DNA from: Alphaproteobacteria bacterium
GTDB lineage: Bacteria; Pseudomonadota; Alphaproteobacteria; MPNO01
Reading direction: 5' to 3'
Assembly: GCA_965248835.1 (NCBI GenBank)
Contig: CBDFLJ010000001.1
Span: 352,001-416,000 of the forward strand
DNA length: 64,000 bases
Every line of letters begins with the position of its first letter. Position 1 is the first letter of the stretch. The position numbers and the translations under genes were made by a program. A model generated the notes under the pieces. The model made no database searches and had not been told where the DNA came from. It saw only the letters and a list, made by a program, of their open reading frames with translations. Shown piece after piece: positions 6,622-58,100 of this stretch.

Positions 6622-7863
6622 ATGAGGCATCAGGCCTACACGATCTACGCCGTGCTGTGCGCCGGTTTCATCGCCAGCCAATTCTTCCGGGTCTCGAACG
6701 CGGTCATCGCCCCGGAGCTCATGTCGAGCCTCGCCATCGGCACCGCGACGATGGGCGTGCTCACCGGCATGTTCTTCCTCGCCTTCGCCGCGATGCAGAT
6801 CCCGGCCGGCATGCTGCTCGACCGCTACGGCGCGCGGCGGACGATGTCGGGCCTGTTCCTGTTGGCGGGCGTCGGGGCGATCCTGTTCGCGACCGCCGGC
6901 GGCGGCTTCGGCTTGATCGCCGGGCGCGCCGTGATCGGCGTCGGCTGCGCGCTCGGGCTGATGGGGGCGATGGTGGTGATCGCCCGCTGGTTCGCGAAGG
7001 AACGCTACGCGCGGCTGATCTCGCTGCTCTACGCGCTGGGCGGGATCGGGGCGCTCCTGGCATCCACGCCGTTGGCCGCCCTCGCCGAGGCGATCGGATG
7101 GCGCGGCGCGTTCCTGGTCATGGCCGCCCTCACCGGCCTGCTCGCCATACTGCTGTTCCTGGTCATCCGCGATGCGCCCGGCGGCGGCACCGCACCGGCA
7201 AGCACGGCATCACCCCGCCATCTTCTGGTCGGGCTGCGCGAGATTTTCGCCAACAGGGAGATCTGGTGGATCTGCTCGATCCAGTTCGTCTGTTATGCCA
7301 GCGTCCTGTCGATCGTCGGACTGTGGGCCGGGCCCTACCTCAACGACGTGCACGGGATGACCGGGATCGCGCGCGGCAACATGCTGCTCGCGCTCAACAT
7401 CGCCCTGTTGGTCGCCGTCATGTTGTTCACCCAGATCGAGCGCTGGCTGAACTCGCGCAGGACCGCGATCATCGGCGGTGGCGGCGTCTCGATCGGCGTC
7501 CTCGTCATGCTTGCGCTGCTGCCGGACCTCGGCCTGTGGTCCGCCTTCGCGCTGCTGATCCTGTTCACGGCCTCGGGCGCATATTTCATGCTGATCCACG
7601 CCCATGCGCGCGCCGTGCTTCCCGACCATCTGATGGGCCGGGGCCTCACGGCCCAGAACCTCGCGGTCATGCTGGGCGTTTTCGTCGTTCAATCGCTGTG
7701 CGGCGTGATCATCGGCGCCTTCGAGCCCGAGGCCGGCCAGGCCCCGGAGATTGCCTATCGCGCGGCGTTCGGCTTCCTCGCGGTTTGCCTGGCGATCGGC
7801 TTGGCGCTGTACAGCCGGATCAGCGACGTCGCGCCGCGCAGCGAGGGCAAGCCGGCCGGCTAA
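6622..7863 (+). CDS. MFS transporter
   Basis: About 12 hydrophobic segments; MFS motif A (GMLLDRYGARR). Confidence 0.9.
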   Translation: MRHQAYTIYAVLCAGFIASQFFRVSNAVIAPELMSSLAIGTATMGVLTGMFFLAFAAMQIPAGMLLDRYGARRTMSGLFLLAGVGAILFATAGGGFGLIAGRAVIGVGCALGLMGAMVVIARWFAKERYARLISLLYALGGIGALLASTPLAALAEAIGWRGAFLVMAALTGLLAILLFLVIRDAPGGGTAPASTASPRHLLVGLREIFANREIWWICSIQFVCYASVLSIVGLWAGPYLNDVHGMTGIARGNMLLALNIALLVAVMLFTQIERWLNSRRTAIIGGGGVSIGVLVMLALLPDLGLWSAFALLILFTASGAYFMLIHAHARAVLPDHLMGRGLTAQNLAVMLGVFVVQSLCGVIIGAFEPEAGQAPEIAYRAAFGFLAVCLAIGLALYSRISDVAPRSEGKPAG

Positions 7864-10928: not shown

Positions 10929-13023
10929 CGCCGCCGGGCGCCCGCGTCAGCACGAGGTTGAGATGGGCATCGACGCAAGCCGTCCAGCCGGCGGGGACGA
11001 CTGTCGTGGCGTCGAACTGCTCGACCACCGCCGGGCCGGCGAAGCGGGTGCCGGCGGCCAGGCGATCACGATCGATGATCAGCGTATCGCTCGCATCGCG
11101 GCCGTCGAAATAGACCGTGCGCCGGCCCTTGACCGCGCCGGCCGGCAGGTCGGCGCTTGCCGCCGGGGGGTGAGCGACCGGCTCGTATTTCGGCACCGCC
11201 ACCCGCACGCGCAGGCGGTAGCTGACGATCTCGACCTCCTTCTCGAGGGCGGCATGGCCGTGAATGCGGGCATGGTGGTCGTCGAACCGCCGGCGTGCGG
11301 CGGCCAGGCCCTCGGCGTCGAGCCCGCCGGGACCGAGCCCGTCGAGCGGCACGCGGAGTTCGTAGCCCTGGCCGACATAGCGCATGTCGAACTCCCGCAA
11401 CCGTTCGGCCGCACCGGGATCGAGGCCTTCGCCGGCGAGGTCCGCGTTGGCGCGCGCCTCGAGATCGCGGAATACGGCCTCGGCATGATTGGGGCGAAGC
11501 TGGCCGAGCGGGCGCAGCCCGGAGCGGACGTAGTCGTGCACGACGTTCGAACACAACAGCCCGAGCGCCGAAAACGCGCCTGGCCGTTGCGGCACCAGGA
11601 TGCGCCCCATGCCGAGCTCCTCGGCGACGCCGGCGGCGTGGACGGCACCCGCGCCGCCGAACGGCAGCAGGGCGAAATCGTGCGGATCGACGCCGCGCTT
11701 TGCTGCGACCACCCGGACCTCATCGGCCATGCGCATGTCGACGATGCGCCGGATCCCGGCGGCCGCCTCGCGCGCGGTCATGCCCAGCCGGTCGCCGATC
11801 CGGGTCCGGAGCGCGGCCGTCGCCGCCGCGACATCGAGGCTTTGCGCGCCGCCCAGCAGATGGTCGGGATTGAGATAGCCGCACACCACATCGGCATCGG
11901 TGACCGTCGGGTCCTCGCCGCCCTTGCCGTAGCATGCCGGGCCGGGCTCGGCGCCGGCACTGCGTGGACCAACCGACAGGAACCCGGCGCTGTCGATCCA
12001 GGCGATCGAGCCGCCGCCGGCCGAGATCGTCGTCAGATCGAGCGCCGGCACCCCGATCGGGCGGCGGGCGATCACGCCCTCGGTGACCTCTAGCGGTGCG
12101 CCGCCCTCGATGAAGGCGATGTCACAGCTCGTGCCGCCCATGTCGAGCGTCACCAGCCCCGTCTCGGCGTCGGCGCGCGCGAGGTAGGCGCTGGCCTGGG
12201 CACCGGCCGCGGGCCCGGACAGCAGCGTATGGACGGTCTTGCCGCCGGCGATCGCGGCGGTGAACGGCATCACCCCGCCGTTCGACTGCATCAGAAAGCG
12301 CTGCCGGGTGGTCACGCCCTCGGCATCGAGGCCGGCGGCAAGATCGCCGACATAGCGGACCAGCACCGGCTCCAGATAGGCGTTCATCAAGGTCGTGGAC
12401 ATGCGCGGCCATTCGCGCAGCCGCGGCAGCACGTCGCTCGACAGCGAGACCGTCGCCGCGGGATGGATTTCGGCGATGATCTCCTTGGTGGCCTGCTCAT
12501 GGGCGGGGTTCATGAACGAGAACAGGTAGCAGACCGCGATCGAGGCGACGTCGGCCTCGCGCAGGGATCGTGCGGCTTCGGCGACCGCGTCGCGGTCCAG
12601 CGGGGCGAGCTCGTTGCCCTGGTAATCGATCCGCCCGGAGATTTCGCGGGTCAGGCTCTGCGGGGCGATCGGCACCGGCTTCTCGTAGAAATAGTCGAAC
12701 GGGTTGCCGTCGCGCGCCTGGGATTGGACCTCCTGGATCGCGCGGTAACCCTTGGTGATCAGCATCCCGACCTTGGCGCCGCGCATCTCCAGCAGCGCAT
12801 TGGTGGTAATCGTCGTGCCGTGGGCGAAGAACGCGATCGCGCCCGGCGCCACGCCGGCGGCGGCGAACCTGCGCACGCCCTCCAGCACCGCCAGCGCCGG
12901 GTTTGCCGGCGTGCTCGCGACCTTCTCGATCGCAATCGTGCCGTCGGCGGCATTCAACAGCACCAGGTCGGTGTGGGTCCCGCCGACGTCGACGCCCAGC
13001 CGATAGCCGCCTTGCCCGCTCAT
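10921..13023 (-). CDS. Hydantoinase A/oxoprolinase family ATP-binding subunit
   Basis: GVDVGGTHTD, HGTT..TNALLE, MQSNGG, SGPAAG, DMGGTSCD, GGGSIAW, GP.SAGA.PGPACY, FGGAG; overlaps the B subunit by 8 nt. Confidence 0.94.
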   Translation of the reverse strand: MSGQGGYRLGVDVGGTHTDLVLLNAADGTIAIEKVASTPANPALAVLEGVRRFAAAGVAPGAIAFFAHGTTITTNALLEMRGAKVGMLITKGYRAIQEVQSQARDGNPFDYFYEKPVPIAPQSLTREISGRIDYQGNELAPLDRDAVAEAARSLREADVASIAVCYLFSFMNPAHEQATKEIIAEIHPAATVSLSSDVLPRLREWPRMSTTLMNAYLEPVLVRYVGDLAAGLDAEGVTTRQRFLMQSNGGVMPFTAAIAGGKTVHTLLSGPAAGAQASAYLARADAETGLVTLDMGGTSCDIAFIEGGAPLEVTEGVIARRPIGVPALDLTTISAGGGSIAWIDSAGFLSVGPRSAGAEPGPACYGKGGEDPTVTDADVVCGYLNPDHLLGGAQSLDVAAATAALRTRIGDRLGMTAREAAAGIRRIVDMRMADEVRVVAAKRGVDPHDFALLPFGGAGAVHAAGVAEELGMGRILVPQRPGAFSALGLLCSNVVHDYVRSGLRPLGQLRPNHAEAVFRDLEARANADLAGEGLDPGAAERLREFDMRYVGQGYELRVPLDGLGPGGLDAEGLAAARRRFDDHHARIHGHAALEKEVEIVSYRLRVRVAVPKYEPVAHPPAASADLPAGAVKGRRTVYFDGRDASDTLIIDRDRLAAGTRFAGPAVVEQFDATTVVPAGWTACVDAHLNLVLTRAPGGGG

Positions 13024-37207: not shown

Positions 37208-38275
37208 ATGCCGGTCAACGGATTCGACGTCTTCGATGCCGACGGCCACGTGCTCGAGCTGGACGACGAGCTGATCGAGTACTACGAGGGCGATCTGGCC
37301 GACAAGAAGCGGATGAAGACGATGCCGATCTTCCCGGCGCTCGACGGCTGGTCGCGCGGCCCGATGATCGCCAAGGAGGATTCCAACCGGAAATACTGGC
37401 ACACCGACGCGGCGGTGTGGTCGGAATGCCTGGCCGATATCGGCGCCGACGGCAGCGTGCTGTACCCGACCGCGGCCCTCGCGCACGGGCTGATGCGCGA
37501 TGTGCGCTTCGCGGTCGCGACCGCAATTGCCTACAACAACTGGCTGGAGGACCGATACACCTCCCAGGACGAGCGGCTTTACGGCGCGGGTGTGCTGGCC
37601 GTCCAGGACCCGCAGGCCGCGGCGGCCGAGCTGCGCCGCTGCGCGAAGAACCGCAAGCGGTTCCCGGCAATGGTGCTGCCCACCGTCACCAAGCTGGGCA
37701 AGACATACGGCGATCGGTTCTTCTGGCCGATCTTCGAGGCGGCGGCCGAATGCGACATGGCGCTGGCGCTGCACGGCGCGCCGTCCGAAGGCTTCGGCTT
37801 CGACCACTTCACCCGCTACATCGCCTCGCACACGCTCGAGCACCCGGTGCCGCTGTTCATCAACCTCACCGATATGATGTTCGCCGGCGTCTTCGATGCC
37901 TTCCCGACGGTCCGGTTCGCCTTCCTGGAAGGCGGCTGCTCGTGGATCCCGTTCATGATGGACCGGATGGACTACGAGTTCGATTCGATGCACGGGATCG
38001 CCTCGCGCAAGGAGCTCAAGAAGCGCCCCTCGGACTATTTCCGCGAGGGCGAGAGCATCTGGGTGGCGATGGAGCTGGGTGAGAGCTCGCTGCCGCTGAT
38101 CGTGGACATGATCGGCTCCGAGCGCATCGTCTACGCCTCGGACTACCCGCACGAGCCGTCCTTCGAGGATCTGACGACCGAGTTGCCGGAGTTTCTGAAA
38201 TCCGGAGCCCTGTCCGCCGAGGCCAAGGCCAACGTCGTCAACAACAACGCGCGCCGGCTCTACCGGATCAACTGA
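37208..38275 (+). CDS. Amidohydrolase_2 family metalloenzyme (decarboxylase/hydratase type)
   Basis: DADGHVLE, AYNNWL, LHG, FLEGG..W.P, YASDYPH. Confidence 0.88.
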   Translation: MPVNGFDVFDADGHVLELDDELIEYYEGDLADKKRMKTMPIFPALDGWSRGPMIAKEDSNRKYWHTDAAVWSECLADIGADGSVLYPTAALAHGLMRDVRFAVATAIAYNNWLEDRYTSQDERLYGAGVLAVQDPQAAAAELRRCAKNRKRFPAMVLPTVTKLGKTYGDRFFWPIFEAAAECDMALALHGAPSEGFGFDHFTRYIASHTLEHPVPLFINLTDMMFAGVFDAFPTVRFAFLEGGCSWIPFMMDRMDYEFDSMHGIASRKELKKRPSDYFREGESIWVAMELGESSLPLIVDMIGSERIVYASDYPHEPSFEDLTTELPEFLKSGALSAEAKANVVNNNARRLYRIN

Positions 38276-38304
38276 GGCCGCCGGCCGAGCCGAGCCGCAA
38301 CAGC

Positions 38305-39183
38305 TCACGCGCCTTCGAATCGATCCTCGAAATCGATGATCTCGTCGAACCCCATCAGCGTATTGAAGTCGCCGAAGGGGTGAAGATCGGCATCCGCGGC
38401 CGAGGAGGCGCCGTGGTCGCGGAGCGCGCGGTAGATCCGGGTCAGCGCCTCGGTCGCGGCGAGGAAGCCCGAGGCCGGGAAGATCGCGACCTGGAAGCCG
38501 AGCGCGGCAAGCTCGGCCGGCGTCAGCACCGGGGTCAGCCCGCCCTCGACCATGTTGGCCATCAAGGGCGCATCGAACAGCCGGCCGGCCTCGGCCATCT
38601 CCTCGGTATCGGCCGGCGCCTCGTAGAACAGGATGTCCGCGCCCGCCTCCTGGAAGGCCTCGAGCCGACGCAGCGCTTCGTCCTTGCCGGCAGCCTTGCG
38701 CGCATCCGTGCGGGCGATGATCAGGAAGTCGCCGCTGATCCGCGTGTCCAGCGCCACCTTGATCTTGCGCACCATCTCCTCTTTCGGGACCAGCTTCTGG
38801 CCCTGGGTGTGGCCGCACTTCTTCGGAAACGCCTGATCCTCGATCTGGATGGCGGCAACGCCCGCACGCTCATAGCCCTGGACGGTGTGGCGGACGTTGA
38901 GCGTCCCGCCATAGCCGGTGTCGGCATCCGCGATCAGCGGCGTCGCGGTCCCGCGCGCGATTTGCGCCGCGCGCGAGACCATGTCGGTAAAGGTGGCGAT
39001 CCCCGCATCGGGCAGCCCGAGATGCGAGGCGACCGTGCCCGAGCCCGTCATGTAGATCGCCGGGAACCCCATCGAATCGGCGATCCGCGCCGAGATCATG
39101 TCATAGACCCCGGGCGCGGTGATGAACTCGCCCGCCCGCAGGCGGTCAGCAAGGCTCTTGGACGTCTCGGCACGGCCATTCAT
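38305..39183 (-). CDS. Isocitrate lyase/PEP mutase family C-C lyase (methylisocitrate or dimethylmalate lyase-like)
   Basis: PGVYD, GLPD.G, DADTGYGG, IEDQ..PKKCGH, ARTDA, NMVEGG.TP. Confidence 0.9.
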   Translation of the reverse strand: MNGRAETSKSLADRLRAGEFITAPGVYDMISARIADSMGFPAIYMTGSGTVASHLGLPDAGIATFTDMVSRAAQIARGTATPLIADADTGYGGTLNVRHTVQGYERAGVAAIQIEDQAFPKKCGHTQGQKLVPKEEMVRKIKVALDTRISGDFLIIARTDARKAAGKDEALRRLEAFQEAGADILFYEAPADTEEMAEAGRLFDAPLMANMVEGGLTPVLTPAELAALGFQVAIFPASGFLAATEALTRIYRALRDHGASSAADADLHPFGDFNTLMGFDEIIDFEDRFEGA

Positions 39184-45818: not shown

Positions 45819-47484
45819 TCAGGCCCTGCCCTTGAAGGCGTTCACGATCGGGTAGCGCCGGTCGCGGCCGAAGGACCGGCGGGTGATCTTCACGCCGGGC
45901 GGTGCCTGGCGGCGCTTGTACTCCGCGCCCAGCAGCATGCGCCAGACCCGCAGCACCAGCGGGCGCTCGAACCCGGTGTGCTCCATCGTCGCGTCGACGC
46001 CCATGTCACGCTCGATCAGGCAGTCGAGGATGGCATCGAGCACGTCATAGGGCGGCAGCGTGTCGTCGTCGCGTTGATCCGCCTTGAGCTCGGCCGAGGG
46101 CGGCTTGGTGATCACCGTCTCGGGGATGACGGCGCCGGCCGGGCCGAGGGCGCCTTGGGGGCGGTTCTCGTTGCGCCAGCGGCAGAGCGCGAAGACCATG
46201 GTCTTGTAGACGTCCTTGAGCACCGAATAGCCGCCGCACATGTCACCGTAGAGAGTCGCATAGCCGACCGACATCTCGGATTTGTTGCCGGTCGAGACCA
46301 CCATCGCGCCGGTCTTGTTGGACAGCGCCATCAGCGCCAGCCCGCGGGCGCGTGCCTGAATGTTCTCCTCGGTGGTGTCCGGCGGCAGGTTGCCGAAGAC
46401 CGGCCGCAGCATGGACTCGAAGGCCTCCATCGCCGGGCCGATCGAGATGGTGTCGAGCGCGACGCCGAGTGCGGCGGCGGTGGCGGCCGCGTCCCGCAGG
46501 CTCTCGGCCGAGGTATAGGGCGACGGCATCATCACGCAGCGCACCCGGTCCGGGACCCAGCGCATCGGCCGCGACCGCAGCGGTCAGCGCCGAGTCGATG
46601 CCGCCGGAAAGCCCGATGATCACGCCGGGAAAGCCGTTCTTGACGACGTAGTCCCGCAGGCCGAGCGTCATCGCCTCGTAGACCGAGGCAAGCCCCGTCT
46701 CGGGCGCATGGCGCGCGGCGGTCTCGCAGTTCCAGGCGCCGTTCTCGCGGGCCCAGCGCGTGGGCAGCAGCGCCTCGCGCCAGCTCGGCGCCTGGGCGCG
46801 GAGCGCGGCATCGCCGCCGAGCACGAACGAGCCGCCGTCGAAGACCAGCTCGTCCTGTCCGCCGATCTGGTTGACGTAAATCATCGGCAAGCGCGATTCG
46901 ATCACCCGCGAGACCGCGAGGTTGAGCCGCTGGTCGGTCTTGTCCACCTCGTAAGGCGAGCCGTTGATCACCACCAGGATCTCCGCGCCCGACTCTTCGA
47001 GGCATTCGACGACCTCTTCGGTCCACATATCTTCGCACACCATCACGCCCAGGCGGACCCCGCGGAAGTTGATCGGTCCGGGCAGAGGGCCGGCGGCGAA
47101 GACGCGCTTTTCGTCGAACACGCCGTAATTTGGCAGGTCGTGCTTGCGCCTTATGTCGGCGATCCTGCCGTCATCGAGCAGGACGGCGGCGTTGTAGACC
47201 GCACCGTTCTCTTCCCACGGCGTTCCGACCAGCATGCCCGGCCCGCCCGCGAGGGTCTCGGCGGCCAGCGCCCGGAGCTCGCGCAGGACCGTCTCCTGGA
47301 AGGACGGGCGGACCACCAGATCTTCGGGCGGATACCCCGACAGCGCCAGCTCGGTGGTCACCACCAGGTCGGCGCCCATGTCGGCCGCCTCGCTCCGCGC
47401 GGCGCTCAGCCGCCGGGCATTGCCCACCACGTCGCCCACCGTCGGATTGAGCTGGGCAAGGACGATTGTCAGCCCGTCGGTCAT
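45819..47484 (-). CDS. nadE: Glutamine-dependent NAD+ synthetase, split by an apparent +1 frameshift near 46552
   Basis: Nitrilase domain with E-K-C triad and GLSGGIDSA in ORF 46243..47484; ENIQAR.RG, STGNKSE, YATLYGD, PSAEL, EYKRRQ in ORF 45819..46565. Removing one base restores DALGPDRVRCVMMPS. Confidence 0.93.
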
Positions 47485-47508: not shown

Positions 47509-48897
47509 CTATTCCGCGGCAACGGTGTGGCGGGCGGTGCCATCGGCCCGGTCGCGTTCGGCTTTCAGCGCCTCGGCCACCAGGAAGGCGAGCTCGAGCG
47601 ACTGGCTGGCATTGAGCCGCGGGTCGCAATGGGTGTGATAGCGGTCGCCGAGATTGGCCTCGGTGACGGCCTGGGTGCCGCCGATGCACTCGGTGACGTT
47701 CTGCCCGGTGAGCTCGACATGGATGCCGCCGGCATGCGTCCCCTCGGCGCGGTGGACGGCGAAGAAATCGCGCACCTCCGACAGCACGGATTCGAAAAGC
47801 CGGGTCTTGAAGCCGTTCCCGGCCTTGACGGTGTTGCCGTGCATCGGATCGCAGGCCCAGACCACCCTGCGCCCTTCGCGCGCGACCGCGCGGACCAACG
47901 CGGGGAGCTTGTCGGCGACCCGGTCGGCGCCCATCCGGGCATACAGCGTCAGCCGGCCGGGCAGGTTCGCCGGGTCCAGCCGGTCGATCAGCCGCAGCAG
48001 GTCATCGGCCTGGAGCGTCGGGCCGGCCTTGAGGCCCAGGGGGTTGGCCACCCCGCGCAGGAACTCGACATGGGCCTCGTCGATCTGGCGCGTCCGGTCG
48101 CCGATCCACAGCAGATGGGCCGAGGTGTCGTACCAATCCCCGGTCGTCGAATCGACCCGGGTCATCGCCTCCTCGTAGCCGAGCAGCAGCGCCTCGTGCG
48201 AGGTGTAGAAATCGGTCTCACGGATCTGCGCGACCGTGTCCGAGGTCAGCCCGCAGGCCGCCATGAAGCGCAGCGTCTCATCGAGCCGGTTGGCGAGGTC
48301 CGCATAGCGGTCGGCCATCCCGTTGGCAACGAAATCGAGGTTCCAGCGGTGGATCTCGTGGAGGTCCGCATAGCCGCCCTGAGCGAAGGCGCGCAGCAGG
48401 TTGAGCGTCGCCGCAGACTGGTTGTAGGCCTGGATCATGCGATCGGGATCGGGCACGCGGGCGGCGGCGGTGAACGGCATGTCGTTGATCATGTCGCCGC
48501 GGTAGCTCGGCAGCTCCACCTCGTCGACGGTTTCGGTATCGGACGAGCGCGGCTTGGCGAACTGGCCGGCGAGGCGGCCGATCTTGACCACCGGGACACC
48601 GCCGCCGAACACCAGCACGACGGCCATCTGCAGCAGCACTCGGAAGGTGTCGCGGATGTTGTCGGGGTGAAACTCCGCGAAGCTCTCGGCGCAGTCGCCG
48701 CCCTGCAGCAGGAAGGCCCTGCCGTCTGCGACATCGGCGAGTTGGCTTTGCAGCCGGCGCGCCTCGCCCGCGAAGACCAGCGGCGGATAGCCCCGAAGGC
48801 GGCCTTCGGCAGCCTCCAGCGCAGCCGGATCAGCGTATTCCGGCACCTGGCGGATCGGCTTGGAACGCCAGCCGTCGGGGGTCCACTCCCCGCTCAT
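47509..48897 (-). CDS. Class II DAHP synthase (plant-type)
   Basis: [60 protein letters not shown]. Confidence 0.96.
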
Positions 48898-49020
48898 CAC
48901 ACCTGTCTCCCTGCAAAACCCCGTACGAGCGGTCGAGCGCGCCGCCCTATACGCGATTACCGGCGATTGTGCCAGCAATTCCTCGCCCGCTCAAACCGCG
49001 GACAGGCGATGCTCGGTCGC

Positions 49021-50397
49021 CTATTCGGCCGCCTGGGCGTCCGGCTCGGCGAGCGGCGTGCGCATGGTCACAAACTCCTCCGCCGAGGTCGGGTGGATGC
49101 CGACCGTGGCGTCGAACTGCGCCTTGGTCGCCCCGCATTTGAGCGCGATGCCGAGCCCCTGGACGATCTCCCCGGCGTCGGATCCTGCCATATGGCAGCC
49201 GAGGACCCGGTCCGTGGCGCGGTCGACGACGATCTTCATCATCGTACGGTCGGCCTTCAGCGTCATGGTATGCTTGAGCGGGCGGAACGTCTCGCGATAG
49301 ACGTCGATGGCGCCGTAGCGCGCCCGCGCGGCCTCTTCGGTAAGACCGACCGTGCCGATATTGGGGTTGGAGAAGACCGCCGTCGGGATGTCGGCATAGT
49401 CCATCGACAGGTCCTTGCCGTCGAACAGATTGGCGGACAGGACCATCGCTTCGCCGATGGCGACCGGGGTGAGTTGGATCCGGTCGGTGACGTCGCCTAT
49501 GGCGTAGACGTTGGCAACGCTGGTCCGGAAATATCCATCGACCATGACCGCGCCGTTGTCGCGCTGGGCGATACCGGCGGCCTCGATACCCATGTCGGCG
49601 ACGTTGGGCACCCGGCCGACGGCGAGCATCACCTGGTCGGCCTCCAGCGTCTCGCCGGTGTCGAGCCTGACCGAAAGCGCGCCGGCGGTCTTGTCGATGC
49701 GCTCGATCTCGGTGCGCCAGCGGATGTCCACGCCGTGGCGCGCCATCTCTTCGGCCAGATGGGTGCGCAAATCGATGTCGAAGCCGCGCATGAACAGCGG
49801 GCCGCGGTAGAGCTGGGTGACCTGCGCACCGTAGCCGTTGAAGATACCGGCGAACTCGACGGCGATATAGCCGCCGCCGACGATGATCACGCGGTCCGGC
49901 CGCTCGGGCAGGTAAAACGCGTCGTCGGAGACGATGGCGTGCTCGATCCCCGGAATGGACAGAAGCTGCGGCCGTCCGCCGGTCGCGATCAGGATATTTT
50001 CAGCCGTCACCGTCTCGCCGCCGACGTCAATCATGTGGGCGTCGCGCAAAACCGCGCGGGCCTCGATGATCCGCACCCGGTTGGTCTCCAGGATCCGCCG
50101 GTAGACGCCGTTGAGCCGCTCGATCTCCTTGTTCTTGTTGGCGATCAACCTCGGCCAATGCAGCTTCGGCGCACCGAGTGTCCAGCCGTAGGCGGCCGCA
50201 TCCTCGGCGTCCTCCGGGTAGTGCGCGCCATAGGCAAAGAGCTTTTTCGGAATACACCCGACATTGACACAAGTCCCCCCGAGGAAGCGCTCCTCGGCGA
50301 TTGCAACGCGCGCGCCATAGGACGCCGACATCCGGGCCGCCCTGACCCCGCCCGACCCCGCGCCGATGACAAACAGATCATAGTCGTAGGCGGCCAT
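49021..50397 (-). CDS. gor: Glutathione-disulfide reductase
   Basis: GAGSGG, GGTCVNVGCIPKK, GGGYIAVEFA, LTPVAI, HPTSAEEFVTMR. Confidence 0.96.
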   Translation of the reverse strand: MAAYDYDLFVIGAGSGGVRAARMSASYGARVAIAEERFLGGTCVNVGCIPKKLFAYGAHYPEDAEDAAAYGWTLGAPKLHWPRLIANKNKEIERLNGVYRRILETNRVRIIEARAVLRDAHMIDVGGETVTAENILIATGGRPQLLSIPGIEHAIVSDDAFYLPERPDRVIIVGGGYIAVEFAGIFNGYGAQVTQLYRGPLFMRGFDIDLRTHLAEEMARHGVDIRWRTEIERIDKTAGALSVRLDTGETLEADQVMLAVGRVPNVADMGIEAAGIAQRDNGAVMVDGYFRTSVANVYAIGDVTDRIQLTPVAIGEAMVLSANLFDGKDLSMDYADIPTAVFSNPNIGTVGLTEEAARARYGAIDVYRETFRPLKHTMTLKADRTMMKIVVDRATDRVLGCHMAGSDAGEIVQGLGIALKCGATKAQFDATVGIHPTSAEEFVTMRTPLAEPDAQAAE

Positions 50398-50439
50398 GCG
50401 CACCTCCCGCGGCCTAGGTGCGACGCGGCGGGCCGGTTG

Positions 50440-51891
50440 TCAACGCGCCAATGTCAGCGACAAGCCGGGCTTGCTGATATGGATGCGGTTGCAGTCGCTG
50501 CGCTCGGTGAGCGCGCGGACCAGGCTGACCAGAGGGTGCCGGCCGGTCGGGTAGTCGGCAGGCGGCGGAGCGGCCCTCATCGCTGCGACGTCGTCTTCGC
50601 CGAACAGCCAGCGCAGCACCATTTCCTCATCGGAGATGCCCGCACCGCCGTAGCGGGCGCGCATCGCGGCCAATGTCGGCGGGGGCGCATCCGGACGCGT
50701 CACCTCGGCGGTTCGCGGACGCTGGAGGATGCGCTGGCGGATTTCAGGATCCATCGCCGCGATCGCCTCGGTGCCGTAATAGCCCAGCGCGTACGCGATC
50801 ACCTGGTCGCTAACCTCGCGGTAGCGCTGCCCGGTGATCACGTTGATCGCCGCCTGGCTGCCGACGAACTGGGACAGGGGCGTGACCATCACCGGATAGC
50901 CGAGCTCGGCCCGGACCCGGACCGTCTCCTCCAGGGTCTCCGGCAGCCGATCCGCCATGCCCACCAGGTCGAGTTGATGGGCAAGGTTGGAAATCATCCC
51001 GCCCGGAACCTGGTGGCGGTACTGGGCGGCGTCATAGCGCAATGGCGCGCCGACGGGCAGGCCCTCGCGCGCGGCAATGGTTGCGAAATGCGCCGAGACC
51101 TCTTCCAGGGCTTCCAGATCGACCGCCGGCTCGTAGCCCAGCGCGCGGGCGTTCGCGGCGACATCGAAGACCGAAGGGTTGGACGCGCCGTCCGAGAGCG
51201 GCGGGATCGCGGTGTTGACGATGTCGATCCCGGCCTCGATCGCTTCCAGGCAGCATAGCGGGCCGAGCCCGGTGGTGCAGTGGGTATGGAACTCCACCGG
51301 GATCTCGCCGGCATTGGCGAGCACGATCGGCGCAAGGGAAGCGGTCCGCTTTGGAGTCAGGAGCCCGCCCGGGTCCTTCAGACAGATCCGATAGACCGGC
51401 AGGGCGGCAGCGAGCCGGCAGCGCTCGGCGTAATAATCGTCGGTGTGCACCGGCGAGATCGAGTAGATCAGGTTGAGCACCGGCTTGAGCCCGGCATCGT
51501 TTGCCGCATCGACGCGGCGCTTCCAGCCTTCGAGCCCGTTCCACGGGTCGGACAGCCGGACCTCGGCGATGCCGTTCTTCGCGCACAGCGCGAGGAACAG
51601 CCCGAACATCTCCGGCGGCTCGTCCTCGAAGGTGTTGATGCGGCCCGCGACCAACCGCAGCGGGGTGTCGGGCGTGCGCCCGGCAATCAGCCGCATGCGC
51701 TCGAACGGATCGTCCTTCAGGTCGCGGACGGCCTTGCCCAACTGTCCGTCGGAGATGAGCTCGATCGCATCGAAGCCCGCGCCGTCGAGCCGCGCCGCGA
51801 CCGGCATCATCATCGCGGTGGTCATCGACGAGGCCCACAGGCTGAGCGGGCCGTCGCGGAGCGTGCAGTCGACGAAGCGGATCGCACTCAC
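50440..51891 (-). CDS. Pyruvate carboxylase/oxaloacetate decarboxylase-type carboxyltransferase, divergent, with no fused biotinyl domain
   Basis: D.TLRDG, YS.SP.HT, LKDPGGLL, FHTH.TTG, HQVPGGM.SNL, VR.ELGYP.MVTP.SQ.VG.QA; GTG overlaps the BCCP stop. Confidence 0.88.
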   Translation of the reverse strand: MSAIRFVDCTLRDGPLSLWASSMTTAMMMPVAARLDGAGFDAIELISDGQLGKAVRDLKDDPFERMRLIAGRTPDTPLRLVAGRINTFEDEPPEMFGLFLALCAKNGIAEVRLSDPWNGLEGWKRRVDAANDAGLKPVLNLIYSISPVHTDDYYAERCRLAAALPVYRICLKDPGGLLTPKRTASLAPIVLANAGEIPVEFHTHCTTGLGPLCCLEAIEAGIDIVNTAIPPLSDGASNPSVFDVAANARALGYEPAVDLEALEEVSAHFATIAAREGLPVGAPLRYDAAQYRHQVPGGMISNLAHQLDLVGMADRLPETLEETVRVRAELGYPVMVTPLSQFVGSQAAINVITGQRYREVSDQVIAYALGYYGTEAIAAMDPEIRQRILQRPRTAEVTRPDAPPPTLAAMRARYGGAGISDEEMVLRWLFGEDDVAAMRAAPPPADYPTGRHPLVSLVRALTERSDCNRIHISKPGLSLTLAR

Positions 51892-52349
51892 GGCGCCGGC
51901 TCGATCCCGAACAACGGCTGACCGTACTCGACCGATTGGCCGTCGGCGACGAGGATTTCCGCGATCACGCCGGCGGAGTCCGCGGCCACGGCGGTGAAGA
52001 CCTTCATCACCTCGACCAGCCCGACGGTGGTACCCGGCTCCACACGCGCGCCCTTTTCGACGAAGGGCGCCGCGCCGGGGTTGGGACCCGCATAGAAGGT
52101 GCCGACCATGGGCGATTGCACGGCGACCAGCCCGGGCCGCAACGCGGCGACGCTCGGTGGCGGCGGCGGTGACGGCGCGGATCGGGCGGCCGGGTGCGTG
52201 GGTTGACCGGCCGGCGCGGCGGTTGCCGGCCGGTAGCCGCCTTTGGCCACCGAGAGCTTGAGCGAGCCTGTCTCGAGTTCGAAGAAGTCGAAGTTCGACC
52301 TGTCGATCAGCTCGAGGATCTCGCGGACCTCTTCTTCGGTCAGCTCCAT
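51888..52349 (-). CDS. Biotin carboxyl carrier protein (AccB-like)
   Basis: AccB-like N-terminus, Pro/Ala linker, SPMVGTFY, biotinylation motif EVMKV, VEYGQPLF. Confidence 0.92.
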   Translation of the reverse strand: MELTEEEVREILELIDRSNFDFFELETGSLKLSVAKGGYRPATAAPAGQPTHPAARSAPSPPPPPSVAALRPGLVAVQSPMVGTFYAGPNPGAAPFVEKGARVEPGTTVGLVEVMKVFTAVAADSAGVIAEILVADGQSVEYGQPLFGIEPAP

Positions 52350-52358
52350 GCCGTCCGC

Positions 52359-53399
52359 CTAAAGCACCGCCTCGGCCAGCAGGCGCAGCGCCTCGATCGA
52401 CGGCTCCTTGGCGATCAAAGTGTGCACGTGGCCCTTGGCCGCGGCCTCTTTCCAGGCGCCCAGCCGGTCGCGGATGCGCGCGGGCGGGCCGACCAGGGCG
52501 ATGTCGTCGACCAGTTGATCAGGGACCGCCGCCGCCGCCTCGCGGTGCTTGCCGTCGAGGAACAGATCCTGGATCTTCACCGCCGCGTCTTCGTATCCGA
52601 GCAGCTTCGCGTAGTCGTTGTAGAAGTTCTTGCGGCGTGCGCCCATGCCGCCGACATAGAGCGCCATGTGGCGCTTGACCTCGGCGCGGCAGGCCTCCAG
52701 GTCTTCACCCGGATGGATCGGCACGAAGGGGGCGATTGCGAAATCCGCCAGCGTCTTGCCGCCGCCGGCCTTGGCGAAGCCCTCCTCGATCGGTCCTGCG
52801 AACAGGTCGAACCGGTCCGGGTTCATGAACACCGGGAAGAAGCCGTCGGCGAGCTCGGCCGCGGTGCGAACGCCGGCCGGGGTGAACGCGCCGGTGAAGA
52901 TCTTCAGCGGCGCGAAGGGATGGAGGATGCTCTTCAGCGGCTTGCCGAGCCCGGTCGTGCCGGGCCCGGTCGCCGGGATGCGGTAATGCTCGCCCTGATG
53001 CTCCAACGGAGCCTCGCGGGCGAAGACCTTGCGGATGACCGAGATGTATTCGCGTGTCCGGGTCATCGGCTTGCCGTAGGGAACGCCGTACCAACCTTCG
53101 ATCACCTGCGGTCCCGACGGGCCGATGCCGAGCACGAAGCGGCCGCCGGAAAGCGCCTGCAGAGTCATCGCCGCCATCGCCGCGGCGGTGGGCGTGCGCG
53201 CACCCATCTGGATGATCGCTGTGCCGACGGTGATCCGCGAGGTCAGTGCCAGCATCCAGGACGCGGGCGTGATCGCATCGCTGCCGTAGGCCTCCGACGT
53301 CCAGATCGAGTCGTAGCCCAGACGCTCGACCTCGCCGACCGCCGCGGAATCGACCGAGAATCTGGACCCCGAATAGCCGAACGTCACGCCGATCTTCAT
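52359..53399 (-). CDS. Luciferase-like (LLM) oxidoreductase, probable F420-dependent subfamily
   Basis: ERLGYDSIW.SEAYGSDA, ARTP...AM.A.TL..LSGGRF.LG.G.SGPQVIEGW.G, LY.GGMG....NFY; resembles the Rv3520c-like group. Confidence 0.85.
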   Translation of the reverse strand: MKIGVTFGYSGSRFSVDSAAVGEVERLGYDSIWTSEAYGSDAITPASWMLALTSRITVGTAIIQMGARTPTAAAMAAMTLQALSGGRFVLGIGPSGPQVIEGWYGVPYGKPMTRTREYISVIRKVFAREAPLEHQGEHYRIPATGPGTTGLGKPLKSILHPFAPLKIFTGAFTPAGVRTAAELADGFFPVFMNPDRFDLFAGPIEEGFAKAGGGKTLADFAIAPFVPIHPGEDLEACRAEVKRHMALYVGGMGARRKNFYNDYAKLLGYEDAAVKIQDLFLDGKHREAAAAVPDQLVDDIALVGPPARIRDRLGAWKEAAAKGHVHTLIAKEPSIEALRLLAEAVL

Positions 53400-53663
53400 T
53401 CCCTGGCCCCTGCGTCGATCTGAAAACTCGCCATCGCATCGAGAGCGCCGTTCGCGGTGGCCGCGATCAGACGCACGCGCCGCGGAATCGCGGGAACTAT
53501 TCGCATTCGGTCCGGCCCTCACGGTCGGGGTAAGATAGCAGGCATAACCGTTCCGGGCCGGGCGCGGCAAGCCCGACGGAAAGGCGCCAGTCCGGCCGTG
53601 TACCGTCAAGGAGGCGTGGCGGGCAAGTCCGTGTGAGCGGCGATATCGGTGGATGGTTGAGCG

Positions 53664-55136
53664 ATGCGGTTCCTGACCCGCGCGGTAAGCGGCCTGTTCC
53701 TTGCCGTGATCACCTTCGGGCTGATCGGGCTCGGCATCTGGCGGCTCCAGGACGCGATCGGCGCCCGCGAAGCCGGGCAGGCCGAGCCGGCGCGCGAGCG
53801 CTCCTACGCGGTCGAGGTCACGACGCTGCGACCGCAGACCGTCCGGCCGGTCATCACCGCCTACGGTGAGGTCCGCGCCTGGCGCATGCTGGAGATTCGC
53901 GCCGGTGCCGCCGGGCCGATCACCGAGCTGTCGGCCGGCTTCCGCGACGGGGCGAGCGTGGCCGCCGGCGAGCCGCTGTTCGCGATCGATCCGACCGATT
54001 ACCGGCGCCGGGTCCGCGATGCAAAGGTCGGGCTCGTCCAGGCCCGGGCCGATCTTGCCGAGGCCAGGGAAGCCTTCGTCCTGGCGGCCGAGGAAGCGCG
54101 CATCGCCAGGCGCCAGCTCGGCCTCAAGGACAGCAACCTGGTGCGCAAGAAGAAGCTGATGGGCAAGGGCATCGTCGCCCAGGCCGCCCTCGATGAGGCG
54201 CGCAACGCCGTCGCCAACGCCCAGCAGACCCTGAATACACGCCTGAAGGCCGAGCTTGCCGCAAGGACGCGCATCGGCACCGCCGACCTCGCGGTCCAGC
54301 GCGCGGCGATCGCCCTGGAGGACGCCGAGAAATCATTGGCCGACGCCCGTTACCGCGCGCCGTTTGCCGGACCCTTGACCGGCGTGGTCGCGACGCTCGG
54401 CCGCCGGGTGACCCGGAACGAGGTGCTCGGCACCCTGATCGACAGGTCGACGCTGGAAGTCTCGTTCCGGGTCACCGACGCGGCCTTCGGCCGTCTCCTG
54501 GCCGAGGGCAGCGGCAGCGCGCTCAAGCCGCTGAAGGTTACCGCGCGCCTGGCGCTCGGCGAGCGCCGCATCGCGGTCGCGGGCACGCTGGAGCGCGCCG
54601 GGCCGCTCAGCAAGCTCTCCGAGGGCGGGCGCATGGTCTTTGCACGCATCGAGGCCGCGGACGAGACGGCGCTGCGCCCGGGCGACTTCGTCACCGTCGA
54701 GGTGGAGGAGGAGGCGATCCAGAACGTCGTGGTGATCCCGGCCGAGGCGGCAACCCAGGACGGCAAGATCTTTCTGCTCGACGCGCACGACCGATTGGAG
54801 GAAGTCACCGGCCGCATTCTGCGGCGCCAGGCCGACACGCTGGTGATGGCGGGCCTGCCGTTCGGGCGGCGCTATGTCAGGGCGCGCCTGCCTTATCTCG
54901 GCGCCGGGGTCGCGGTGACGCCGCGCGAGGCCGGCGCGGTGCCGGAGACCGCGGCACCGCCCGCGATGATTTCGCTCGACAACGCGCGGCGCCGCGCGAT
55001 CATCGCCTTCGTCAAGGCGCGCACCGGCATGCCGTCTGAAATAAGGGCGAGGATTCTGGCCGCGCTCGCCAAGCCGCGTGTTCCCGCGGCCATGGTTGAG
55101 CGGCTGGAGGCCCGCATCAACGGCGCCCGACGGTGA
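53664..55136 (+). CDS. RND efflux periplasmic adaptor (MFP) with extra C-terminal helical domain
   Basis: N-terminal TM anchor, lipoyl halves (G..V..GE.LF.ID; RAPFAG), long alpha-hairpin, LRPGDFV.V. Confidence 0.88.
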   Translation: MRFLTRAVSGLFLAVITFGLIGLGIWRLQDAIGAREAGQAEPARERSYAVEVTTLRPQTVRPVITAYGEVRAWRMLEIRAGAAGPITELSAGFRDGASVAAGEPLFAIDPTDYRRRVRDAKVGLVQARADLAEAREAFVLAAEEARIARRQLGLKDSNLVRKKKLMGKGIVAQAALDEARNAVANAQQTLNTRLKAELAARTRIGTADLAVQRAAIALEDAEKSLADARYRAPFAGPLTGVVATLGRRVTRNEVLGTLIDRSTLEVSFRVTDAAFGRLLAEGSGSALKPLKVTARLALGERRIAVAGTLERAGPLSKLSEGGRMVFARIEAADETALRPGDFVTVEVEEEAIQNVVVIPAEAATQDGKIFLLDAHDRLEEVTGRILRRQADTLVMAGLPFGRRYVRARLPYLGAGVAVTPREAGAVPETAAPPAMISLDNARRRAIIAFVKARTGMPSEIRARILAALAKPRVPAAMVERLEARINGARR

Positions 55137-58100
55137 GGACGCCGAGCACGGACGCCGACGGCGGACGGCTCGCCGGACTGTTCCGCTACTTCGTCGATCA
55201 CCGCACCGCAGCGAACCTGCTGATGGTGGTGATGCTGCTGGCCGGCCTGTTCTCCGCCACCCAGATACGCTCGCAGTTCTTTCCCGACGTCGCCATAGAG
55301 GTCGTGCGCGTCAACGTTGTCTGGTCCGGTGTCGGGCCGGAGGAGATCGACCGCGCGGTCGTCGCCCGGCTCGAGCCGGGGCTGCGCGCCGTCGACGGCC
55401 TGGAGACCCTCCGCGCCTCCACGCGCGAGGGGCGCACCACGATTCGCCTGGAGTTCGTGGCGGGCTGGGACATGGAGGCCGCGGTCGAGGAGGTCAAGGC
55501 CGCGGTCGAGGAGACGCCGGACCTGCCGGGCGATATCGAAGAGCCGACGATCCGCCGCGCCCGGTTCCGCGACCTGGTAACCGACGTGATCATTTCCGGA
55601 CCGGTCTCGCTCGCCTTGCTGCACGACTATGGCGAGGAGCTGCGCACGCGGCTTTTCCGGGCCGGGGTCACCAAGACCCGCCTGATCGGCGTCAGCGCGC
55701 CGAAAATCCGGATCGACGTGCCGCCCGATGCGCTGGAGCGCCACGGCCTGACGCTGCGCCGGATCGCCGATGCGGTCGCCGCGGAGACCGGCATCCGGCC
55801 GGTCGGCGATTTCGCCCAGGGCACCGCGCGGGTCCGCACCGATGCCGGGCGCGAGACCATCCGGCGGATCGCGGCCATCGCCGTCCGCTCGCTGCCCGAC
55901 GGCAGCAAGCTGCGCCTGAGTGACTTCGCCAGGGTTCACGAGGAGGGGCTCGACCGCGGTCAGGCGCTTTTCCGCAGCGGCAAGCCGGCGGTCCGGGTCC
56001 GAATTGAGCGCGACGCCAAGGGCGATTCGATCGCGCTGCAGCAGACGGTTGAGGATGTCGTGGCCCGGATAGCGTCGAGCCTGCCGCAAGGCATCGAGAT
56101 GACGCTTACCCGCACCCGCGCCCGGGCGATCACCTCGCGGCTCGACCTGCTGATCAACAACGGTTCGATGGGTCTCGCGATCGTCCTGGTGCTCCTGTTC
56201 CTGTTCCTGTCCGCGCGGACCGCGTTCTGGGTGGCCGCCGGCATCCCCGTCGCGATGGCCGCGACCGTCGCCCTGATGTACGTCGCCGGGTTCACCTTCA
56301 ACATGGTTTCGCTGTTCGCGTTGATCCTGTGCCTGGGCATCGTCGTCGACGATGCGATCGTGGTCGGCGAACACACGGACCATCTAGCCGGGCAGGGCCT
56401 GTCGCCGGCCGACGCCGCGACGCAAGCCGCCCGGCGCATGGCGGGTCCGGTTTTCAGCGCTTCGATCACCACGGTGATCGCCTTCGCCGCCATCATCCTG
56501 ATCAGCGGACGGTTCGGTCGGCTGATCGCCGATCTTCCCTTCACCGTCTGCGTGGTGGTGATCGCGAGCCTGATCGAATGCTTCATCATCCTGCCCGCCC
56601 ACATGCGCCACGCCCTGCAGTCCGGCGCGCGCAAGCGCTGGTTCGATGCGCCGGGCCGGATGGTCAACCGCTTCTTCGTCCGGTTCCGCGAAGGCGGGTT
56701 CCGGCGCTTCATCCGCGCCGTGATCCGGTTGCGCTATCCGGTCTGGGGGATGGCCTTGCTGCTGCTCGCGGTCTCGGCCTCGGCGGTGATCGACAGGACG
56801 GTGCGCTGGCGGTTTTTCGTCGCACCCGAACGCGGCACGGTGACCGCCAATATCGCCATGCTGCCGGGCGCGGTGCGGGCCGACACCAAGGCGATGCTGG
56901 ACGAGCTCGACCGCGCGCTGGCGGTGGTCAACGACCGCTATGCCGCGAAATACGGCCGCGCGCCGGTCGAGCTGTCGATCGCCAAGCTCGGCGGCACCAC
57001 CGGCCGCGGGCTGACCGGTGCCGATACCATGGACCCCGACCGCCTGGGCGGCTACGACATCTCGCTGATTGATCCGGACGAGAGACCCTATACCGGCTTC
57101 GCCTTCCTGGCCGATTGGCGGGGCGAGATCCGCCGGTTGCCGAAGCTCGAACGCCTCGCGCTGCGCCGCGAGCGCCGCGGTCCGGGCAGCGGGGATATCC
57201 ATATCCAGCTGTCGGGCGCCGACAGCCAAACGCTCAAGACCGCCGCGCTCGACCTCCAGGCCCGGCTCGCGCGGTTCCCGGCGGTCAGCGGGCTGGAGGA
57301 CGACCTGGCCTACGACAAGCCCGAGTTCGTGGTGCGGCTGACCCCGCGCGGCGAGGCGCTGGGGCTCAGCACCGCCGCGCTTGCCCGCACGCTGCGCGAA
57401 CGCCTGGACGGCATCGAGGCGGCGTCGTTCGCGCGCGGCACCCATGAAGTCGAAGTCAGAGTCCGCCTGCCCGAAGACGCGCTGGGCCGGTCCTATCTGC
57501 ACCGTGCCAAGCTGCCGGTAGCGGGCGGCGCCTTCGTGCCGCTGTCCTCGATCGCGACCCTGGAGCAAAAGCAAGGCTTCTCCGTCATCCGGCGCGAGGC
57601 CGGTGAGCAGGTGGTCACCGTCTCCGGCGACCTTGACGACGACGCGGCGGCGCGGACCGCGGTCGGCGACGCGCTGGCCGGCGAGATCCTGCCCGAGATC
57701 GCGCGGCGCTACGGCATTCGCACCTCGCTCGGCGGGCTTACCGAGCAGGAGCGCGACTTCCTGTCCGACGCCAGACTCGGCCTGGCTTTGTGTCTGGTCG
57801 GGATCTATCTCGTGCTGGCCTGGGTGTTCGGATCCTGGTCGCGTCCGATCGTGGTGATGCTGGTGATCCCGTTCGGGCTGATCGGGGCGATCTGGGGCCA
57901 TCACCTGCACGGCATCCCGCTATCGATGTTTTCGGTCGTGGGCCTGTTGGGGATGACCGGGATCATCGTCAACGATTCGATCGTGCTGGTGACCACCATC
58001 GACCGGCGGCTCGAAACGCAAAGCGCGGTCGCCGCGGTGATCGACGGGACCTGCGACCGCCTGCGCGCCGTGCTCCTGACCACGCTGACCACAATCGGCG

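Follow-up and report, generated by a model that had tools for sequence, protein, structure and literature searches.

A biotin carrier protein and a divergent carboxyltransferase encoded behind an F420-type oxidoreductase: a candidate carboxylase that may borrow AccC

Introduction

How does a biotin-dependent enzyme work when the genes at its locus supply a carrier protein and a carboxyltransferase and no biotin carboxylase, and what has an F420-dependent oxidoreductase to do with it? These questions are raised by positions 50440 to 53399 of a 64-kb stretch of alphaproteobacterial DNA (contig CBDFLJ010000001.1 of assembly GCA_965248835.1; the whole stretch analysed is "the window"). Genes for a luciferase-like monooxygenase (LLM)-class oxidoreductase, a BCCP (biotin carboxyl carrier protein) and a carboxyltransferase (CT) stand here one after another on the minus strand. 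An earlier reading of this DNA (the original prediction) had proposed an undescribed biotin-dependent reaction on a non-pyruvate ketone or keto acid, coupled to a flavin or deazaflavin redox step and using a partner encoded elsewhere. We propose, with moderate confidence, that BCCP and CT provide the carrier and the carboxyl-transfer subunit for an ATP-dependent carboxylase whose substrate is a carbonyl compound other than pyruvate. The enzyme would borrow AccC as its biotin carboxylase (BC). The part played by the LLM is more doubtful.

Results

The three genes lie in one predicted transcription unit

The source genome comprises 4.89 Mb in two contigs (C1 and C2) and was scored as 100% complete with 9.5% contamination. 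Open reading frame (ORF) calls, with the junctions read directly, gave the following layout in window coordinates (nt, nucleotides; aa, amino acids):

52359-53399, minus strand: LLM-class F420-dependent oxidoreductase, 346 aa, first gene of the unit (TIGR03559, PF00296)
52350-52358, minus strand: 9-nt spacer from the LLM stop to the BCCP start (sequence read)
51888-52349, minus strand: AccB-type BCCP, 153 aa, with an N-terminal domain, a Pro/Ala linker and a biotinyl domain (TIGR00531, PF00364)
50440-51891, minus strand: CT, 483 aa, HMGL-like barrel plus PYC_OADA, no fused BCCP (Pfam, PycB 5KS8)
53400-53663, strand not applicable: divergent intergenic region between the LLM and the HlyD-AcrB efflux genes, the sole room for an operon promoter

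The LLM start was taken as the ATG at 53399; a longer ORF that begins with TTG and reaches 53609 adds a low-complexity leader only. The LLM stop codon (TAG) is followed by 9 nt and the BCCP ATG, the BCCP stop (TGA) and the CT start (GTG) overlap as GTGA, and gor starts 36-42 nt past the CT stop, which confirms the linkage described in the original prediction. Because the 9-nt gap and the overlap leave no room for a promoter, BCCP and CT must be read from the LLM transcript, and we regard the three genes as co-transcribed on the strength of these junctions. The LLM-BCCP gap is 10-13 nt in five related loci (L006, L007, L009, L010 and L011) and 9-13 nt over all loci with the trio. A scan of 48900-53800 returned no sigma-70-like promoter and no terminator, and Rfam had no match in 48500-55500; both results are uninformative in DNA of 68% GC.

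The carboxyltransferase retains its catalytic residues and changes a pyruvate-contacting position

The CT matches PF00682 (53.5 bits) and PF02436 (102.8 bits) and falls under every NCBIfam cut-off. The best model, the PycB domain, scores 316.7 against a cut-off of 402; the next-best equivalog models score 283, 280 and 275 against 718, 756 and 734, and the model for the 5S transcarboxylase subunit 204 against 827. Among solved structures the CT aligns with PycB 5KS8 (E 1.8e-64, residues 4-422), OadA 2NX9 (E 1.8e-60) and 5S 1RQB (E 9.8e-52), and has the same fold as they do, with the metal ligands and both the QVPGGM motif and the catalytic Thr motif in common. It differs from these enzymes in having RDGPLS for RDAHQS, KDPGG for KDMAG and AGR-IN for LLRGQN, and in having no fused BCCP and no PycA, OadB/G or 12S partner. 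The retained ligands and the RDGPLS and KDPGG motifs had been noted before, and our alignments to the solved structures and to 91 homologues, from which the motifs were read, bear this out. The positions concerned are as follows:

51841-51858, minus strand: R12-D13-G-P-L16-S17; Arg and the Asp metal ligand kept, Leu where RDAHQS has Gln
51364-51378, minus strand: K172-D-P-G-G; Lys aligned with the carbamylated Lys of pyruvate enzymes (KDMAG)
51280-51288, minus strand: H202-T-H204, predicted metal ligands (alignment)
50872-50883, minus strand: T337-P-L-S340, aligned with TPTS(K/Q) of pyruvate carboxylase
50443-50586, minus strand: C-terminal tail of CT, like the N-terminal domain of AccB-type BCCPs (hhalign)

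Thr337 matches the Thr of TPTS(K/Q), which is catalytic in pyruvate carboxylase. Pyruvate is contacted in the pyruvate enzymes by two residues, the RDAHQS Gln and the LLRGQN Arg; the first is replaced by Leu16 and the second is displaced by two positions, giving AGR-IN. Judged by these alignments, CT keeps its catalytic equipment with a pyruvate-contacting position changed.

The pyruvate-Gln position tracks gene context across the CT clade, being L, M, S, A/T or Q. Leu is found in the trio and in loci with an amidase, Met in loci with a bicupin protein, Ser in those with an Amidohydro_2 gene, and Ala or Thr in most loci with a CoA-transferase (these contexts are described below). The pattern is one that different substrates would produce. 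The KDPGG motif is more uniform: KDPGG or KDPGA occurs in 80 of 81 clade rows of the alignment, the remaining row having KDQGG. CTs from Rhizobium, P. putida and Sphingobium plasmids have KDPGG or KDPSG, and OadA and pyruvate carboxylase (PC) have KDM[AS]G.

The last ~45 residues of CT resemble BCCP N-termini (hhalign probability 83%, E 9e-6, 33 columns). This tail is conserved in the clade and in CTs whose gene context is that of the Hpe/Acv ketone carboxylases (below), and it is absent from OadA; the KDPGG motif and the tail are common to both sides of the split between these sister clades and absent from OadA and PC. The tail is probably an assembly element.

The CT belongs to a large clade beside CTs with a ketone-carboxylase gene context

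With E 0.001 as the limit, CT has 5206 matches in a protein database. Lengths among the best 120 run from 423 to 513 aa, and those with a name are called "oxaloacetate decarboxylase alpha" or "hypothetical". Scanning one genome per species gave 79 loci with CTs 51-72% identical to that of the window. In a maximum-likelihood tree of 38 sequences under LG+G4, with the PC domain of the window's genome as root, OadA is separated from the superclade that holds the window CT with an ultrafast bootstrap support (UFBoot) of 100. Together with the sub-cut-off scores and Leu16, this supports the view that CT is a divergent enzyme of a non-pyruvate type. Within the superclade, the clade of the window CT is sister, again at UFBoot 100, to the plasmid CTs of Rhizobium, P. 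putida and Sphingobium, which by their gene context represent the Hpe/Acv/Xcc type in this tree. By tblastn, these plasmid CTs are 36-39% identical over 99-100% of the query, and OadA-annotated matches 30-33% over 77-91%. We found no characterised member of the large clade of the window CT, and nothing in print on it.

The next-best plasmid relatives (36-40% identity, full length) fall into two kinds of cluster. The first, in Rhizobium, P. putida and Sphingobium, reads kinase-BCCP-BC-CT-HAD phosphatase-acetoacetate-CoA ligase, and is the arrangement of HpeCBA and AcvCDE; a Rhodococcus plasmid locus reads dikinase-type kinase-BCCP-BC-CT, followed by a thiolase and a tyrosine-type phosphatase. 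The second consists of CT-accB-accC operons in Burkholderia and Arthrobacter. The nearest relatives of the window CT outside the trio (support 100) include an accB-accC-CT operon on a Sulfitobacter plasmid and a locus with an AMP-forming ligase gene after CT and thiolase-like genes close by.

Of the 79 loci, 17 have a BCCP next to CT and 10 have a BC there. The LLM-BCCP-CT trio was found in six, all of them metagenome-assembled genomes (MAGs) labelled Defluviicoccus or Alphaproteobacteria. An adjacent accC-like gene is not the normal state of the homologues (10/79), and the LLM linkage is not unique to the present genome (six further loci); the original prediction had named the opposite of both as what would count against it. 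Four other contexts recur: CoA-transferase III-citryl-CoA-lyase-like-CT-BCCP-BC with TRAP or TctC transport genes, in Beta- and some Alphaproteobacteria; CT with a gentisate-dioxygenase-like bicupin protein, in 17 Binatia-type loci; CT near Amidohydro_2, a TIGR03619-type F420 LLM, DUF2848 and a nitrilase-family gene, in ~19 loci; and amidase-small cupin-CT-DUF2459 after prpC/prpD/prpB-like genes, in ~16 loci. In the amidase context, a small ORF that precedes CT was considered as a hidden BCCP and rejected, the product being a cupin-like protein.

Two of these groups deserve separate mention. Betaproteobacterial loci (L051, L060, L067, L073, L076, L079, L080 and L082) and the Sulfitobacter plasmid (L098) carry CT-BCCP-BC with TRAP or TctC transporters, the betaproteobacterial ones also a family III CoA-transferase and a 255-aa citryl-CoA-lyase-like protein; the set looks like a complete carboxylation pathway. 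Among the Binatia-type genomes (L012-L050), single ones carry at least two CT paralogues in differing contexts. One context has the bicupin protein, the other has Amidohydro_2 together with DUF2848, an F420 LLM and a nitrilase-family gene, and no BCCP or BC adjoins the CT in either.

Biotin carboxylase would be supplied in trans

No accC, oadB or 12S-type gene lies in the window, as had been stated before. Counting the BC genes of the genome, a check that the original prediction had proposed, gave three homologues by PF02785 and no fourth: C2:2579514, C1:1971077 and C1:39985. They are a free-standing AccC beside AccB, PccA beside PccB, and a full single-chain pyruvate carboxylase, all elsewhere in the genome, which supports the claim of a partner encoded at a distance; AccC is the only free-standing BC. 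The sole crotonase-type carboxyltransferases are pccB, accA and accD (PF01039), all outside the window, and OadB (PF03977) has no match in this genome scored as complete. With a pyruvate carboxylase of its own, the genome already provides for plain pyruvate carboxylation.

The same holds for the relatives. No BC was found by tblastn within 7 kb of CT in any of the six trio loci. The five related genomes with the trio carry two or three BC homologues each, and in none is there a fourth; each of the 31 relatives searched has at most three, of the AccC, PccA and PC types. All four Binatia genomes with at least two CT paralogues have only two BC homologues. These counts argue that BC supplied in trans is normal for this CT clade. 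The lack of a dedicated BC is thus common in the clade and would be explained most simply by sharing of AccC. The idea that one relative has AccC on the same contig as the trio was dropped, as tblastn found no BC in L006-L011.

The BCCP points in the same direction. It passes the AccB model TIGR00531 marginally (116.4 against 115.2), also matches PF00364, and aligns from residue 1 with carboxylase-linked BCCPs. Its identity to BCCPs that occur together with CT homologues and BC (40-43%) is higher than that to the genome's own AccB (35%). E113, M115 and K116 are invariant in 15 sequences, and the codon of Lys116 is the predicted biotinylation site:

52002-52004, minus strand: Lys116 codon in the EVMKV motif, biotinylation predicted from alignment

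In E. coli, the N-terminal domain of AccB is the part that contacts BC. The full-length AccB-type BCCP and the AccB-like tail of CT would fit assembly with a BC. Taken together, the BC counts, the AccB-type BCCP and the CT tail favour a BC-containing holoenzyme with AccC as a borrowed subunit.

The LLM is F420-linked and found across the family

The LLM matches TIGR03559 (F420_Rv3520c) at 377 bits, above the family cut-off of 335, as well as PF00296. The genome carries the F420 biosynthesis genes fbiC, fno, cofE and cofD at C2:1372979-1377645; cofC had no match in the genome at E 1e-8. Among the 80 best loci with LLM orthologues, 13 lie inside proteobacterial F420 biosynthesis operons (fbiC, cofC, cofD, cofE, fno), including L111, L114, L117, L132, L136, L143, L150, L152 and L166, often with a second LLM paralogue in tandem. 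By family membership, gene neighbourhood and its nearest solved relatives, Mer and Adf, which depend on F420, the LLM is F420-linked. It resembles other TIGR03559 enzymes in both respects and differs from them in its linkage to biotin enzyme genes, which is limited to one alphaproteobacterial family. We found no TIGR03559 (Rv3520c-type) LLM with a determined substrate, and "Rv3520c" appeared in no title or abstract that we located.

The same family is represented by 18 genomes, of which 17 gave a match to the LLM and 10 a match to CT. The genomes with CT are 10 of the 11 members of one sister genus (68-72% identity); in the window's own genus, the two other genomes gave no CT match, and neither did genera g2-g5. 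One of the genomes without a CT match, G014, has gor and LLM adjacent. A complete genome of the same genus, G007, is syntenic with the window (cysS-nadE-aroG-gor-LLM, with divergent HlyD-AcrB), and its LLM-gor interval is reduced to roughly 100 nt from the start of BCCP, 39 nt from the end of CT and the spacer:

6976-7140 of locus L212 (G007:C1:3341000-3353000): BCCP-CT deletion scar between gor and LLM, a natural knockout of the pair

The scar shows that the ancestor of the genus had BCCP-CT and that the pair was later lost without the LLM. The LLM is a core gene of the family, and it is less firmly tied to the carboxylase genes than one would expect from the 9-nt gap.

Other features of the window

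Several further features were seen. A glutamine-dependent NAD synthetase (45819-47484, minus strand) is broken into two overlapping ORFs in different frames, 46243-47484 with CN_hydrolase and the start of NAD_synthase, and 45819-46565 with the remaining NAD_synthase. In two relatives it is one ORF of 553-554 aa (L212 1139-2803 and L213 2212-3873); the split is a frameshift or an assembly error. A hydantoinase A/hydantoinase B (oxoprolinase-type) pair at 9267-13023 (minus strand) comes without an acetone-carboxylase gamma subunit. An Amidohydro_2 gene and a PEP-mutase/isocitrate-lyase-family gene lie at 37208-39183, 11 kb from CT. Both families recur beside CT homologues elsewhere; since housekeeping genes separate the pair from CT in the window, the proximity may be chance.

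Discussion

A proposed reaction

We propose that AccC would carboxylate the biotin on Lys116 of the BCCP, using ATP and bicarbonate, and that the metal site of CT (D13, K172, H202 and H204) together with Thr337 would move the carboxyl group to the alpha (enolisable) carbon of a non-pyruvate carbonyl compound. The reaction would turn a methyl ketone, or else an oxo acid whose side is non-polar, into a beta-keto acid. BCCP-CT would be transcribed from the promoter of the upstream LLM, and the LLM could either oxidise a secondary alcohol to the carbonyl substrate or act on the product as a reductase.

By analogy, the enzyme would belong broadly with the three-component ketone carboxylases. Described enzymes of this type include HpeCBA of Rhodococcus rhodochrous GD02, AcvCDE of Sphingobium sp. 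SYK-6 and XccABC of Aromatoleum aromaticum EbN1, which use biotin to carboxylate (phospho)hydroxyaryl methyl ketones (PMC9618137; bioRxiv 10.1101/2022.04.28.489975). HpeCBA and AcvCDE are ATP- and biotin-dependent carboxylases of phosphorylated hydroxyaryl methyl ketones whose CT is a distant PycB homologue (PMC9618137; bioRxiv 10.1101/2022.04.28.489975), and HpeCBA consumes one ATP per carboxylation (PMC9618137). The window system is like them in its PycB-like CT of ~480-500 aa without a fused BCCP, in a separate AccB-type BCCP beside CT, in the KDPGG/KDPSG motif of part of the context-matched CTs, in the C-terminal tail and in the sister relation of the clades. The differences are as clear. 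Identity is only 36-39%, and this was measured on context-matched plasmid homologues rather than on the characterised proteins; the window CT clade is sister to, and not inside, the context-matched Hpe/Acv-type CTs of the plasmid loci. The trio has no dedicated BC in the cluster, an F420 LLM preceding the BCCP instead, and no kinase, phosphatase or beta-ketoacyl-CoA ligase adjoins it. The claim that the system is undescribed is overstated: the nearest CTs match in gene context the described HpeCBA, AcvCDE and XccABC, which the original prediction had not considered.

Sharing of a BC has a precedent. In actinobacterial acyl-CoA carboxylases, one BC-BCCP alpha subunit serves several CT beta subunits, so that an ATP-using BC is likewise shared among carboxyltransferases. 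The actinobacterial CTs are crotonase-fold proteins with acyl-CoAs as substrates, whereas the window CT is HMGL-like, its carrier has its own gene, and only the BC would be shared.

What the substrate might be is hinted at by the neighbours. Family-level synteny holds Rieske oxygenases and VOC/glyoxalase genes, and a UbiD-family decarboxylase lies in four trio loci, which hints at aromatic compounds. The genome itself has at least eight UbiD-family decarboxylase paralogues (contig C2); the UbiD that follows CT in four related loci is missing from the window.

Several observations weigh against this proposal. On the carboxylase side, tblastn with the plasmid kinase subunits, the Tm-1-like protein and the HAD phosphatase at E 1e-8 found no Hpe/Acv-type kinase or phosphatase in the genome; since HpeCBA acts on phosphorylated aryl ketones, the analogy names no substrate. 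The "Hpe/Acv-type" label of the plasmid loci is itself an analogy, drawn from gene context. On the LLM side, the LLM is closest among solved structures to the Mer reductases (103 bits, full length) and not to the alcohol dehydrogenase Adf (1RHC, 40 bits) or FGD (26 bits), and FMN enzymes give no more than partial matches. BCCP-CT accompany it in four of the 80 best LLM loci, 76 having neither, and 56 of the 79 CT loci have no LLM of any kind in the flank. To these are added the distribution in the family (17 against 10 of 18 genomes) and the G007 scar. The coupling of the carboxylase to an LLM redox step, as first put forward, is therefore doubtful.

Is the LLM part of the same pathway?

There are two main possibilities for the LLM. 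In one, there is no shared pathway: BCCP-CT is a dispensable accessory module that rides on the LLM promoter between the conserved LLM and gor, and the LLM has a separate F420 role throughout the family. We find this possibility evenly balanced, and it rivals only the LLM-coupling part of our explanation, leaving the AccC-borrowing carboxylase as it is. The family distribution, the scar and the adjacent gor and LLM of G014 are all expected from it, and LLM orthologues lie within F420 biosynthesis operons in 13 of 80 loci as against four with BCCP-CT.

In the other, the LLM and BCCP-CT are functionally linked. What speaks for a link, and against separate roles, is in the first place the spacing. 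The tight 9-13 nt gaps persist over ~30% protein divergence (CTs ~70% identical) though both flanks vary, with an ABC transporter, transposase or glyoxalase upstream and UbiD or gor downstream. Secondly, an F420-type LLM lies within 7 kb of CT in 23 of 79 loci and belongs to two LLM subfamilies; a second, independent co-occurrence of CT and an F420 LLM is seen in 17 Binatia-type loci. Thirdly, LLM orthologues adjoin, in seven of 80 loci, hydantoinase-type gene sets that contain an acetone-carboxylase gamma subunit, a ketone-carboxylase-type enzyme non-homologous to the CT system; these sets score far under the acetophenone-carboxylase cut-offs. The loci in question (L116, L128, L133, L140, L144, L153 and L174) are from gammaproteobacterial MAGs; in them the LLM orthologue is divergent to the hydantoinase A/B-type enzyme and the acetone-carboxylase gamma gene, and acyl-CoA dehydrogenase and enoyl-CoA hydratase genes are also present.

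A secondary-alcohol/ketone oxidoreductase that feeds a ketone carboxylase would, tentatively, explain the kept gaps, the LLM co-occurrence and the acetone-carboxylase-type neighbours. A functional link between the LLM and BCCP-CT is thus conceivable, and we lean slightly against it. Its most specific form would be a third route of ketone carboxylation, in which the F420 LLM oxidises a secondary alcohol to a non-phosphorylated aliphatic or aryl methyl ketone and BCCP, CT and AccC carboxylate the ketone to a beta-keto acid; we consider this unlikely. In the literature we found no paper that joins a biotin-dependent carboxylase, a ketone and F420, and nothing on an F420-biotin link; on Defluviicoccus and F420, nothing relevant was found, as judged by titles and the beginnings of abstracts.

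Other explanations for the missing biotin carboxylase

The lack of a dedicated BC could also mean that none is needed. CT would then move CO2 from a beta-keto acid to the BCCP, and the carboxybiotin would be passed on to AccA/AccD (giving malonyl-CoA), enter a transcarboxylase-like cycle with PccB, or lose its CO2, which would make the enzyme a decarboxylase. All six trio-bearing genomes examined lack a dedicated BC, the AccB-like BCCP could in principle dock on AccA/AccD, pccB, accA and accD are present, and 5S and OadA are homologous to CT. Such a shuttle is nonetheless improbable, as OadB is absent from the genome, the 5S equivalog model scores far below its cut-off, and the tree relatives of CT carry accB-accC beside it. 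In addition, an assembly with a BC in it is suggested by the N-terminal domain of AccB type and by the CT tail, and the characterised HpeCBA uses one ATP per carboxylation (PMC9618137).

That CT is an ordinary pyruvate or oxaloacetate enzyme, whether the B subunit of a split pyruvate carboxylase or the alpha subunit of oxaloacetate decarboxylase, is very improbable: its best NCBIfam and PDB matches are PycB, OadA and 5S, and sources name homologues "oxaloacetate decarboxylase alpha subunit", but CT is under every equivalog cut-off and split from OadA with support 100, has Leu for the Gln of RDAHQS and a displaced LLRGQN Arg, and sits in a genome with a complete single-chain pyruvate carboxylase and without OadB. 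Equally hard to credit is a decaying remnant that lost its BC and is now being lost as in the congener G007, for although the scar, the lack of a CT match in G014 and genera g2-g5 and the missing BC would suit it, neither ORF is broken and no catalytic or biotinylation residue has been lost, BCCP-CT persists in the window genome and in 10 of 11 genomes of the sister genus at 68-72% identity, and the CT-only arrangement is usual in Binatia, where four of four genomes have just two BC homologues.

Implications

Biotin-dependent carboxylation of unactivated carbonyl compounds has been shown only recently, for lignin-derived aryl ketones. The clade of the window CT is much larger than its ketone-carboxylase sister and is environmentally abundant, occurring in soil and wastewater Binatia and in Beta- and Alphaproteobacteria. 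The same-genus genome with the scar is a natural knockout suited to finding the substrate. If AccC is indeed borrowed, counting the BC genes of a genome would not reveal its repertoire of biotin enzymes. If there is a true F420 link, it would give a function to one F420-dependent LLM that proteobacteria keep beside their F420 biosynthesis genes. Should the third route of ketone carboxylation exist, it would for the first time connect a biotin enzyme with deazaflavin redox chemistry, and it would open up a large CT clade that takes in many of the 5206 database homologues and at least two paralogues per Binatia genome.

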